Assembly (NCBI GenBank): GCA_963827505.1
Contig: CAWHBD010000001.1
Span: forward strand, 2,731,006-2,795,005
Length of the DNA: 64,000 bases
Source of the DNA: an uncultured Candidatus Rokubacteria bacterium
GTDB lineage: Bacteria; Methylomirabilota; Methylomirabilia; Rokubacteriales; CSP1-6
Direction: 5' to 3'
Shown: in pieces, positions 37,037 through 42,977 of the stretch
How the letters are laid out: every line of letters begins with the position of its first letter
How positions within the stretch are numbered: position 1 is the first letter of the stretch
The notes under the pieces: generated by a model
Databases searched by the model: none
The model's input: only the letters and a program-made list of their open reading frames with translations
What the model was told of the DNA's origin: nothing
Position numbers and translations under genes: made by a program

Positions 37037-37357
37037 TCAGCCGAGCCCGCGCAGGAGCGCCACGGTGGCAACCGCGAGCGCGATGGTCGCGAACAGGTTG
37101 ACGCGCCACGCGGCCAGGACGAACACGACCACCGCGCCCCACAGCGGCGGGTGGGCCGGCGAGGCCATTAGCCGGCCGTGATCGACCAGGATCAGCGGCA
37201 GCGCCAGGGCGGGCAGCACGGCCAGCGGGATGAGCCGCAGCCATAGCCGCAAGCGTGGTGGCAGCGGACGCCGGGCCAGGGCCAGCAGCAAGGGCGCCCG
37301 GGTGAGATAGGTCGCCACCGCCATGCCGGCGATCACCAGCCACACGTCCGTCCTCAT
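37037..37357 (-). CDS. azlD: AzlD-domain membrane protein
   Basis: TYLTRAPLL...LPALALP; overlaps the azlC stop. Confidence 0.8.
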   Translation of the reverse strand: MRTDVWLVIAGMAVATYLTRAPLLLALARRPLPPRLRLWLRLIPLAVLPALALPLILVDHGRLMASPAHPPLWGAVVVFVLAAWRVNLFATIALAVATVALLRGLG

Positions 37358-38067
37358 GGCGACTCCGGCTCCAGCACCAGCGCCGCCACCCCGCTGACGA
37401 CGACGCCGGCGATGACGATGTGCCAGTTGCCCGGCAGCACCAGCGCCACCGCGATGGCCAGTCCCCCACCCGCCAGCGCCACCAACCAGTCCGTCCATCT
37501 GTGCAGCTGGACGGCGATGAGGGCCAGGAACACGGCGGGGAAGGCGAAGTCGAGCCCCCAGCGCGCGGGCTCGGCGACCAGACCGCCGAGCTGGGTGCCG
37601 ACCGGCACGCCGGTCAGGAACGCCACGCCGATGGCACCGGCGCTGCCGAGGTAGAACCACGGATCGGGTGGATTGCGATGCGCGACCGCGATCGCGAATG
37701 ACTCGTCGTTGATCCAGTGGGCGACCAGGGCCAGCCACGCCCGCGGAAAGCCGCGGAAGGCCGGCGCCAGCGACGCGGCCATCAGGTAGTGGCGCATGTT
37801 GATCACGTACGTGGTCAGCACGATGGCCACCGCCGGGGCCCCGGCGGCGAGCATCGGCACCGCCACGAACTGCGAGGCGCCGGCCAGGACCAGGAGCGAC
37901 ATTCCCCAGACCTGGCCCGGCCGCAGCCCCGCCTGCACGGCGAGGCCCCCGAACACGGTGCCGTACACGAACACCGACGGGACGAGGGCGAGGGAAGCGA
38001 CGAACCCGGCCCGGAAGCGGCCGGACGGCGGGCCCTCCTCGGCCGCATCGGGGCCGGCGTCGCTCAC
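37354..38067 (-). CDS. azlC: AzlC-family permease
   Basis: LAGASQFVA, INMRHYLM, NDESFA, LDFAFPAVFLAL. Confidence 0.88.
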   Translation of the reverse strand: MSDAGPDAAEEGPPSGRFRAGFVASLALVPSVFVYGTVFGGLAVQAGLRPGQVWGMSLLVLAGASQFVAVPMLAAGAPAVAIVLTTYVINMRHYLMAASLAPAFRGFPRAWLALVAHWINDESFAIAVAHRNPPDPWFYLGSAGAIGVAFLTGVPVGTQLGGLVAEPARWGLDFAFPAVFLALIAVQLHRWTDWLVALAGGGLAIAVALVLPGNWHIVIAGVVVSGVAALVLEPESP

Positions 38068-39113
38068 AGGAATGCCCGCTCGAGGAAGAGGACCACCCCA
38101 ACCAGCAGGATCGCCAGCGAGGAGCTCCAGATCACTCGTCGCTCCCACCGTGTCCTCCGCACGAGCACTAGCAGCGGGAGCGCCACCGCAACAACGAGGG
38201 CCTGCCCGATCTCGACGCCGGCGTTGAACCCGAAGAGCGAGAGCAGCAACCCCTGGGTCGGCAGGCCGACCTCGCGCAGGGCCGAGGAGAAGCCGAAGCC
38301 GTGAACCAGCCCGAAGCACAAGCTGACGAGCCAGCGCCGGGATACCACGGGCGTGCGGACGAGGTTCTCGGCCGCCACCAACGCGATCGACAGGGCGATG
38401 ACCGCCTCCACCAGCCGGGCGGGTAGCGCGACGACGTCCAGCACCGCGAGGACCAGCGTCACGCTGTGGGCGAGGGTGAACGCGGTGATGATCTTGGCCA
38501 GCGCGAGCCAGCCGCCACCGCGGAGCAGAAGCCCGAGGAGAAACAGCAGGTGGTCCCACCCGCTCAGGATGTGCTCGACGCCGAGCAGCACGAAGCTCGC
38601 GGCCCCCCGACCGCCGTCACCGGTGAGGCGGGTCTCGCGTGACTCGGGGGAGAACGCGAACTGCGTCGTGCGGCCGAACGCGTCGATCCGGGCCAGCGTG
38701 TGGTAATCGGCGCCGAGCACGTCGAAGAGGTCGTCACGGATCCGCAGGACACGGACCTCGCCACCGCACGTGAAGTCCACGACCAGCGTCAGGTTCTCGG
38801 GCTGAGCGGCGACGGGCTGCACCGATCCGGGCCCGGCTGCACAGCGCCGGCCCTCGGCAGCGAGCGTCACCTTCTCGCGGACGAATCCCAGCAGGCGGTC
38901 GCGACTGGCGGCGTCGCCGGCGCGCGCCTGCTGGATGGCCTGGGCCGCCGCCGGCGGCAGCGCGGCCGGCCACAGGGTGAGGCTGTAGCGTGCGCCGTCG
39001 CCGTGGACCGCAATCGCGGCGTAGCCGGTGCTGCCGCCGGTGTGCGCCAGGCCCGACCCCGCGGCGACGACCACGAGCGCGAGGGCAGCCGCGAGGGCCC
39101 TCACGGTTCTCAT
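38064..39113 (-). CDS. HupE/UreJ-family protein with a periplasmic N-domain
   Basis: Signal peptide followed by AH, GVEHILSGWDHLLFL, FTLAHSVTL, FGLVHGFGF, FNAGVEIGQ. Confidence 0.88.
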   Translation of the reverse strand: MRTVRALAAALALVVVAAGSGLAHTGGSTGYAAIAVHGDGARYSLTLWPAALPPAAAQAIQQARAGDAASRDRLLGFVREKVTLAAEGRRCAAGPGSVQPVAAQPENLTLVVDFTCGGEVRVLRIRDDLFDVLGADYHTLARIDAFGRTTQFAFSPESRETRLTGDGGRGAASFVLLGVEHILSGWDHLLFLLGLLLRGGGWLALAKIITAFTLAHSVTLVLAVLDVVALPARLVEAVIALSIALVAAENLVRTPVVSRRWLVSLCFGLVHGFGFSSALREVGLPTQGLLLSLFGFNAGVEIGQALVVAVALPLLVLVRRTRWERRVIWSSSLAILLVGVVLFLERAFL

Positions 39114-41297: not shown

Positions 41298-41298
41298 C

Positions 41299-42006
41299 TC
41301 AGCGGCGCCACTGCAGGTAGCCGGCGCTCAGCGTCAGGGCGATCGCGGACACGATCAGGAAGAAGGCGACCGCCTCGGTGCGCACCAGCCCCTGGATGAA
41401 GTCGGTGAAGTGCAGCGCGAACGAGAGGTAACCGACCAGGCCCCGCAGCTCGGGCGACCGCTGGAAGGTCTGCAGGTGGCCGACGAACCAGAAGGCCAGC
41501 AGCACCGCCGCGGTGAGCAGCGCGGCCACGATCTGGTTGTGGGTCAGCGTCGAGAAGAACAGGCCGATCGCCAGGCAGGCCATCCCGAGCAGCACGAATC
41601 CGAGGTAGCCGGCCACGATGGTCGTGGTCTCGGGCGTTCCGAACAGGTAGAGCGGGACCAGATCGATCAGGGTGCCGGCCGTGATGGCCAGCAAGATCGT
41701 CACCGCGCCCAGGAACTTTCCGGCCACGATCTGCCACGGCGTCAGCGGCAGGGTCAGCAGCAGCTCGGCGGTCCCCGCACCGTGCTCGGCGGCCAGCAGC
41801 CGCATCGAGATCACCGGCGCCAGGGTCAGGAGCAGGATGCCCATGTTCTGGAACGTCCCCGCCATGCCGGTCTCGCCGGTCAGGAAGACGTTGTAGAGGA
41901 AGAAATAACCCGTGCCGAGCAGGAACACGGCGACCACGTAGTAGGCGATCGGCGAGCGAAAGTAGCTGGCGAGCTCCTTCTGGTACAGGGCGAGCGTGCC
42001 GCTCAT
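41299..42006 (-). CDS. GldF-like ABC-2 permease
   Basis: KELASYFRSPIAY, ISMRLLAAE, ELLLTLP, VAGKFLG. Confidence 0.88.
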   Translation of the reverse strand: MSGTLALYQKELASYFRSPIAYYVVAVFLLGTGYFFLYNVFLTGETGMAGTFQNMGILLLTLAPVISMRLLAAEHGAGTAELLLTLPLTPWQIVAGKFLGAVTILLAITAGTLIDLVPLYLFGTPETTTIVAGYLGFVLLGMACLAIGLFFSTLTHNQIVAALLTAAVLLAFWFVGHLQTFQRSPELRGLVGYLSFALHFTDFIQGLVRTEAVAFFLIVSAIALTLSAGYLQWRR

Positions 42007-42977
42007 GCCGCTCCCGGGCGGACCGACGGCTCCTGCACGTACTGCAGGAAGACGTTTTCTAGCGTGGGCTGCCGCCGCTCCAGCCGATGCAGATCCCAGC
42101 GGCTCGCCACCGCGCGGGCGATCGCGGCCTCGACCCCGGGCCGCGCGTCCACCTGACAGTCGACGGTGAGCACCCCGTGATCGTCCGGAGCCGCCCGCAC
42201 GTCCACCGCGCCGACGCCCTCGATCGACAGCAGCTGCTCGCGCAGTGCCGAGGCCGGCGCCGTCGCCTGCAGCGTCACGCGGTTGGTCTGCTCGAGCGCC
42301 CGCTGCAACCCGGCCGGCGAATCGATGGCCAGCAGCCGGCCGTCGTTGATGATGGCCACCCGCCGGCAGATCAGCGTCGCCTCGGCCAGGATGTGGGTGC
42401 TCAGCAGCACCGCGTGATGCTCTCCGAAAGCCCGGATCACCTCGCGGGTCTCCTGGATCTGGCCGGGGTCCAGCCCCGCGGTGGGCTCGTCGAGCAGCAA
42501 GACCTGTGGCGCGCCGAGCAACGCCTGGGCCAGCCCCAGGCGTTGCCGGTACCCCTTCGAGAGCTTGTAGATCTCGTGATGGACGACGGCCTCCAGCCGG
42601 CAAGCCGCCATCACCCGGTCCAGCTCGGTCGCGATGGCGAGTCGACGCACGCCCTTCACCCGGGCGACGAACCGGAGGTACGCCGACACGTCCAGCGTGT
42701 CGTACAGGGGCGGCCGCTCGGGGAGGTAGCCGAGGACACGGGCAGCCTCGACGTTCTGGGTGGCCATGTCGAACCCGGCCACCGTCACCCGCCCCGACGT
42801 CGCCGCCGTGAACCCGGCGATCATGCGCATCGTGGTGGTCTTGCCGGCGCCGTTGGGGCCGAGGAATCCCACGATCTCGCCCTTCTCGACGGTGAAGGAC
42901 AGGTCGTGAATGATCCTCTTGGAGCCGTAGCGCTTGGACACCGACTCCAGGGCGATCGCCGCTGAGGGGGCGCTCAT
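42003..42977 (-). CDS. GldA-like ABC ATP-binding protein
   Basis: GPNGAGKTT, LSKGYRQR, LLLDEPTAGLDP, STHILAE. Confidence 0.92.
   Translation of the reverse strand: MSAPSAAIALESVSKRYGSKRIIHDLSFTVEKGEIVGFLGPNGAGKTTTMRMIAGFTAATSGRVTVAGFDMATQNVEAARVLGYLPERPPLYDTLDVSAYLRFVARVKGVRRLAIATELDRVMAACRLEAVVHHEIYKLSKGYRQRLGLAQALLGAPQVLLLDEPTAGLDPGQIQETREVIRAFGEHHAVLLSTHILAEATLICRRVAIINDGRLLAIDSPAGLQRALEQTNRVTLQATAPASALREQLLSIEGVGAVDVRAAPDDHGVLTVDCQVDARPGVEAAIARAVASRWDLHRLERRQPTLENVFLQYVQEPSVRPGAA

Follow-up and report, generated by a model that had tools for sequence, protein, structure and literature searches.

A widespread GldAFG-like ABC-2 cassette with a His-rich GldG and a secreted metallo-beta-lactamase-fold hydrolase, probably a periplasmic metal-handling system

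The GldAFG gliding transporter of Flavobacterium johnsoniae (TIGR03522, TIGR03518, TIGR03521) combines an ATPase, an ABC-2 (ATP-binding cassette) permease and GldG, a protein with the ABC_transp_aux/GIFT fold. Here we describe a gene cassette that shares these three components and is located in a 64,000-nucleotide (nt) stretch of a Candidatus Rokubacteria genome (contig CAWHBD010000001.1). This stretch is hereafter called the window, and all coordinates are positions within it unless stated otherwise. The whole cassette and its passenger genes lie on the minus strand. Unlike the F. johnsoniae transporter, the cassette occurs in hosts that are not Bacteroidota, and its proteins all score far below the NCBIfam equivalog cut-offs (256.9 vs 402.6 bits for GldA, 127.2 vs 288.5 bits for GldF, and 60.4 vs 389.85 bits for a GldG orthologue). 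It also adds a His-rich insert in GldG, a short His-bearing DUF4340 partner, a gene for a secreted metallo-beta-lactamase (MBL)-fold hydrolase, and a HupE/UreJ-2 gene. The cassette is a real and widely shared operon, and it probably encodes an undescribed periplasmic metal-handling machine.

Other described systems resemble parts of this cassette. In the NosDFY-NosL system, an ABC-2-type motor with periplasmic parts and a metal donor protein serve a Sec/Tat-exported metalloenzyme that is encoded next to them. The likeness to the cassette would be one of logic only, with an MBL-fold hydrolase as the putative client, and neither a NosD beta-helix protein nor NosL was seen among the cassette genes, although no search was made with a NosD or NosL model. 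A periplasmic metal binder is likewise encoded together with an unusual ABC system in Vibrio cholerae (ZrgABCDE) and in Pseudomonas aeruginosa (PA4063-PA4066), and the Zn-binding fold of ZrgA and PA4063 is shared by the N-terminal domain of the HupE protein of the cassette. The ABC parts of those systems are of another type, and the binder of the cassette is fused to a permease. A 2025 paper in Nature Communications named the anglerases (Ang-1/Ang-2)-HupE/UreJ-2, reported binding of Cu2+ and Ni2+ by the Ang-1 domain, and proposed metal capture for uptake (PDB 9gce; PMC12537917). No ABC system appears among the anglerase neighbour genes that it lists, and the term “ABC” is absent from its text (PMC12537917).

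Gene identities in the cassette were assigned from Pfam and NCBIfam matches. A preliminary description of the locus, made from the DNA alone, had proposed that gldA, gldF, gldG, a DUF4340-like gene, hupE/ureJ, azlC and azlD form one coupled chain. This chaining is confirmed, as each junction is an ATGA/GTGA-type overlap or a 1-nt gap: ATGA at gldA/gldF, DUF4340/hupE and azlC/azlD, GTGA at hupE/azlC, TGA-G-GTG at gldF/gldG, and an overlap of gldG with the DUF4340-like gene. The operon nevertheless begins one gene before the start given in that description, at the secreted MBL-fold hydrolase (43041..43904), since this gene lies on the same strand about 20 nt upstream of gldA and is preceded by the only promoter-like site of the region. 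The site is a sigma-70-like promoter candidate, TTGACA-18-TATCGT (43976..44005), recognised by its match to the consensus.

To compare the cassette with its relatives, we used 80 loci from species genomes of Rokubacteria, Burkholderiales, Entotheonella, Rhodospirillales and others, with GldG proteins 37-99% identical to the query, an intact orthologue from a relative. Sufficient upstream DNA was available for 68 of these loci and sufficient downstream DNA for 66. For the control, 20 ordinary GldG loci were drawn from the same phylum; they have GldA-GldF-GldG and, within a neighbourhood of 5-8 kb, neither an MBL nor a HupE partner. An insert is present in all 80 related loci, across several phyla, and in 0/20 of the ordinary loci. 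An MBL gene is located on the same strand upstream of gldA in 68/68 insert-bearing loci, directly adjacent in 63 of them, compared with 0/20 ordinary loci (Fisher p ~2e-15). A HupE/UreJ-2 gene follows the DUF4340-like gene in 34/66 insert-bearing loci, again compared with 0/20 (Fisher p ~1e-5). The conserved unit thus differs from the one first proposed: the MBL gene is the constant partner, and HupE/UreJ-2 is present in about half of the cassettes. A divergent cassette type, with a GldG that is 32% identical, likewise starts with an MBL gene.

A second and ordinary GldA-GldF-GldG system begins just inside the right end of the window, at 63907-64000, and runs on past it (genome C1:2794912-2800035). 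It encodes a 587-aa DUF4340 protein and has no His insert, MBL gene or HupE gene, and therefore serves as an internal control.

The MBL protein carries a signal peptide, a conserved Cys pair and the family signature PEKFQR. Its metal ligands SHSHLDH (HxHxDH; 43491-43520 in the window), TPGHTxGH, DA and H are each found in at least 90% of 71 sequences. The nearest solved or curated relatives are the AttM/AiiA N-acyl-homoserine lactonases and 4-pyridoxolactonase. The cassette enzyme shares with 4-pyridoxolactonase and the AttM/AiiB/AiiA quorum-quenching lactonases the MBL fold and the HxHxDH di-metal site, and they are its best NCBIfam and PDB matches. It differs from AttM and AiiA in its own signal peptide, Cys pair and PEKFQR signature, and in scores far below their equivalog cut-offs (165.2 vs 390 bits for AttM; 115.8 vs 375 bits for AiiA).

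GldA-like ATPase is encoded at 42003..43022, with a GTG start at 43022 or an ATG start at 42977, and the GldF-like ABC-2 permease at 41299..42006. The cassette GldF showed no conserved His, Cys or Asp beyond those of ordinary GldF. The GldG-like gene (~39712..41297) encodes DUF7088 and ABC_transp_aux/GIFT domains, and its reading frame is broken in the window. The GldG tested against Pfam was a 99% match to the orthologue of a relative, which has ~80% DNA identity to the window gene; it scored 87.1 bits for ABC_transp_aux (PF09822; cut-off 34.7) and 30.9 bits for DUF7088. In fold, the orthologue comprises a thioredoxin-like domain followed by an IFT52/OST48 GIFT domain, with a match to the IFT52 GIFT domain at E 9e-12.

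The GldG insert, FLDGHGEPDPFSLESHDHLEGAPGHSHGLGAKYVLHERHGMAKARH (40541..40678), was initially described as a stretch of 47 residues with eight His directly after the GHGE motif. Its position and its eight His stand, and the correct length is 46 residues. The chance of finding at least eight His in one given stretch of this length is 1.7e-5 (at 2.5% His). The insert also survives the question raised by the frame breaks of the gene: it is present in intact orthologues, is conserved, and marks a subfamily of GldG. Its consensus is GH[G]E-x-D-P-F-S-x-E-x-H-D-H-x-E-G-x2-G-H-x-H-G-x7-9-H-E-x-H-G. In an alignment of 40 sequences, 38-79% identical to its first sequence, H220, E222, D232, E235 and H254 are invariant, and at least 90% of the sequences retain H231, H233, H240, H242 and H251. 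The His pattern is retained in most of the 80 loci, with an acidic version in one clade, and the divergent GldG type carries FEFHTHFEGLAGHSHG. Other representatives of GldG mostly have a short GHGE...GYS...K link in place of the insert, as does the second GldAFG system of this genome. An AlphaFold model of the GldG orthologue has a mean predicted local distance difference test (pLDDT) score of 79; residues 229-253, which correspond to the insert, fall below 50 and are the sole long low-confidence stretch in an otherwise good model. Such low values would be expected of a flexible loop. Some His-type GldG proteins of the representative library (P0129, P0135) are 679-713 aa long, align with the query only beyond residue ~207-236, and may be fusions with the GldF permease.

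The gene for the short, membrane-anchored DUF4340-like protein (39110..39730) starts within the 3' end of gldG. For DUF4340 (PF14238), the protein of the window scores 23.3 bits, below the cut-off of 25, and an orthologue from a relative (L014) scores 29.5 bits. It is far shorter than the DUF4340 protein of the ordinary system. The His-bearing stretch that had been noticed in it was confirmed: YHGVHTGAEASHEH (39440..39481) belongs to a cluster conserved in the family, W-x-Y-H-x9-H-x-H-x2-D, each residue of which is found in at least 80% of 67 sequences.

The last gene of the cassette in the window (38064..39113) encodes a HupE/UreJ-2 permease preceded in the same chain by an anglerase-like domain with an N-terminal His. 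The permease had been called HupE/UreJ; it belongs to the Pfam family HupE_UreJ_2 (PF13795; 158.3 bits vs a cut-off of 24.5) and not to the classical HupE_UreJ family. The two sequence features reported for it hold. Its predicted mature N-terminus, AH|TGGS (39021-39047), places a His at position 1 after a signal peptide whose cleavage site was read from sequence, and this His is found in at least 90% of 33 relatives. The conserved His residues of the membrane domain are among the many conserved polar residues of its helices (H181, D187, H188, H216, E249, N250, H271, N297, E301, Q304); the protein also carries the motif GVEHILSGWDHLLF (38541-38582). The N-terminal domain is a beta-sandwich with two invariant Cys and an HHT motif. 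No match to it was found in the PDB at the sequence level at E up to 10. A Foldseek search with the predicted model matched its fold to Zn-bound ZrgA, Zn-bound PA4063 and Cu-bound Ang-1; the match to the Ang-1 structure 9gce had a probability of 1.0, E 1e-4, TM 0.54 and 17% identity. The protein thus resembles the anglerases in its signal peptide, mature N-terminal His, beta-sandwich domain and subsequent HupE_UreJ_2 membrane domain, and would be an “anglerase”-type HupE/UreJ-2. The low identity to 9gce, the two invariant Cys, the HHT motif and the GldG-cassette neighbourhood set the cassette clade apart.

This dedicated HupE/UreJ-2 clade sits almost only in the cassette. In a metagenome scan, 22/23 HupE/UreJ-2 genes with this N-terminal domain and enough upstream DNA directly followed a cassette, compared with 1/28 of the more distant HupE/UreJ-2 genes. 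The co-occurrence of His-rich GldG and HupE/UreJ that had been put forward as a check exists as linkage. HupE is optional: it is lacking in half of the cassettes, and 6/12 genomes with such cassettes encode no homologue at all. In one metagenome contig (L163; Ga0070741_10005748), a single cassette lies between two anglerase-type HupE/UreJ-2 genes, the first preceding the MBL gene and the second following the DUF4340-like gene.

Taken in order, the cassette encodes a secreted AttM/AiiA-like di-metal MBL hydrolase, a GldA-like ATPase, a GldF-like ABC-2 permease, a periplasmic GldG-like protein with a GIFT domain and a putatively flexible His-rich loop, and the short, membrane-anchored DUF4340-like protein, which has a His cluster too. 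About half of the lineages add a HupE/UreJ-2 permease bearing an Ang-1/ZrgA-like N-terminal-His domain. The best reading of this arrangement, which we regard as evenly balanced between right and wrong, is an ATP-driven periplasmic metal relay that serves the secreted hydrolase. The ABC-2 motor would not carry metal across the membrane but would drive movement of the periplasmic parts of GldG and the DUF4340-like protein. Their His clusters could serve as binding sites for a divalent transition metal, be it Zn, Ni, Cu or Co, from which it would be passed on to the Sec-exported MBL hydrolase in a manner resembling the service of NosDFY-NosL to N2O reductase. Where present, the anglerase-HupE/UreJ-2 protein may connect the periplasmic metal pool with the cytoplasm. 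The hints as to the metal diverge: both the MBL site and the ZrgA match point to Zn, the Ang-1 match to Cu or Ni. More specifically, the GldAFG-type motor and the His loops of GldG and its DUF4340 partner might act as a periplasmic metallochaperone that loads the secreted MBL lactonase or keeps it loaded, which we put forward tentatively, as possible but doubtful.

Several observations weigh against a metal relay. In the acidic clade (L100 and L101, including Achromobacter piechaudii NBRC 102461, NZ_BCTK01000006.1), the His residues of the GldG loop are replaced by Asp and Glu (LDDLEDHGDDEN), which may fit a switch of metal and also a role unrelated to metal. This clade keeps the MBL gene, has GHSHLHDD in its DUF4340-like protein, and lacks HupE from the genome. 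The metal link through HupE/UreJ-2 is just partial, because HupE/UreJ-2 is dispensable. No riboswitch or other RNA was found within 34000-47000, and upstream of the MBL gene in the 68 loci there were at most four weak matches to Zur-, Fur- or NikR-like boxes. No conserved regulator flanks the cassette; neither a regulator nor any other gene does so in more than 10/59 loci. Finally, the preliminary description had named the adjacent lactonase among the enzymes that might be served. This is its best-supported claim in view of the position of the MBL gene in every locus with enough upstream DNA, and the evidence for the hydrolase as client is this gene linkage, which another explanation would fit as well.

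In this alternative, a signal, lipid or metallophore that contains a lactone is exported or extracted by the ABC-2 system and then opened by the periplasmic MBL enzyme, the His-rich loops being structural or binding a partner or substrate instead of relaying metal. The strict linkage of MBL and ABC genes suits this equally well, as do the lactonases among the nearest solved relatives of the enzyme and a GldF that is unchanged relative to ordinary systems; ABC-2 systems are also usually exporters. Two independent conserved His clusters and the recurrent recruitment of a dedicated, metal-catching HupE/UreJ-2 clade would be left unexplained, and we consider such an exporter rather unlikely. High-affinity metal uptake of the ZrgABCDE/PA4063-4066 kind appears improbable. 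Here the His loops would pass scarce metal to HupE/UreJ-2 for import, and the MBL enzyme would be a co-regulated consumer only. The ZrgA/PA4063 fold of the HupE N-terminal domain, the uptake proposed in the anglerase model, and the translational coupling of HupE to the ABC genes all speak for import, but half of the cassettes have no such permease, the MBL gene is invariably there, and no Zur-like boxes were found.

A further alternative concerns the window itself, in which the gldG-like gene is spread over three frames. Aligned at 80% identity to an intact orthologue from a relative, its DNA showed ~14 single-base insertions and hardly any deletions, and a GC3-phase Viterbi scan reproduced the frame steps. 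The pieces of gldG in the window have no Pfam match because of these frameshifts. A true pseudogene, and hence a system that is dead in this organism, could be argued from ~14 indels in 1.6 kb beside six intact neighbouring genes. The changes are, however, nearly all +1, and every piece still reads as conserved protein in its frame. Orthologues of gldG are intact at 510-556 aa, and the same scan found 231 comparable dense patches across the genome (at least eight coding-frame changes per 2 kb), as expected for a locally unpolished long-read consensus. The 7.0 Mb assembly, in 4 contigs, has a completeness score of just 63%. With +1 changes dominating, orthologues intact and similar patches genome-wide, the breaks look like an assembly artefact and not like gene decay, and loss of the system is very improbable. 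Many other “pseudogenes” of this genome are probably consensus errors too, in agreement with its completeness score.

The genes beyond HupE are local passengers. AzlC (37354..38067) and AzlD (37037..37357) had been counted as part of the machine, and this was rejected, as they adjoin the cassette in a few Rokubacteria only. A tandem ThyX (Thy1) protein of 530 aa with two Thy1 domains is encoded 35 nt downstream of azlD (35406..36998) and is a passenger as well; ThyX lies beside the cassette in at least one of the AzlCD-bearing Rokubacteria, and follows AzlCD in relative L014. SodC (32077-32472, plus strand), also proposed as a metalloenzyme to be loaded, was rejected as a client; it shows no linkage, and its gene stands on the opposite strand ~4.5 kb past azlD. 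The region of the MBL gene (43000-43999) has a G+C content of 63.5% compared with 69-73% in its surroundings. This low value, together with GldG identities of up to 79% between Rokubacteria and metagenome-assembled genomes labelled as Proteobacteria, suggests that the cassette has spread horizontally.

None of the protein families in the cassette is new, and the anglerase-HupE/UreJ-2 architecture has been in the literature since 2025. We found no literature on a His-rich GldG subfamily, on its fixed MBL partner or on its His-bearing DUF4340 partner, and none on GldG with HupE or on PF13795 beyond the 2025 anglerase paper. GldAFG-like ABC-2 systems are present in nearly every genome of this phylum, with 9350 relatives in the representative library, and such very common systems have no known job outside gliding Bacteroidota. 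With its constant enzyme partner and a metal-catching permease that recurs beside it, the His-rich subfamily allows a definite hypothesis to be framed, and the role in metal handling is testable in cultured Burkholderiales. The cassette also gives the anglerase-HupE/UreJ-2 proteins a functional setting that was not reported in their first description. If the metallation model is true, it would show how metal is supplied to Sec-exported MBL-fold enzymes in the bacterial periplasm. A metallochaperone of this kind would be the second ABC motor, after NosDFY-NosL, to mature an exported metalloenzyme, and would give GldAFG-like systems their first concrete function outside Bacteroidota.

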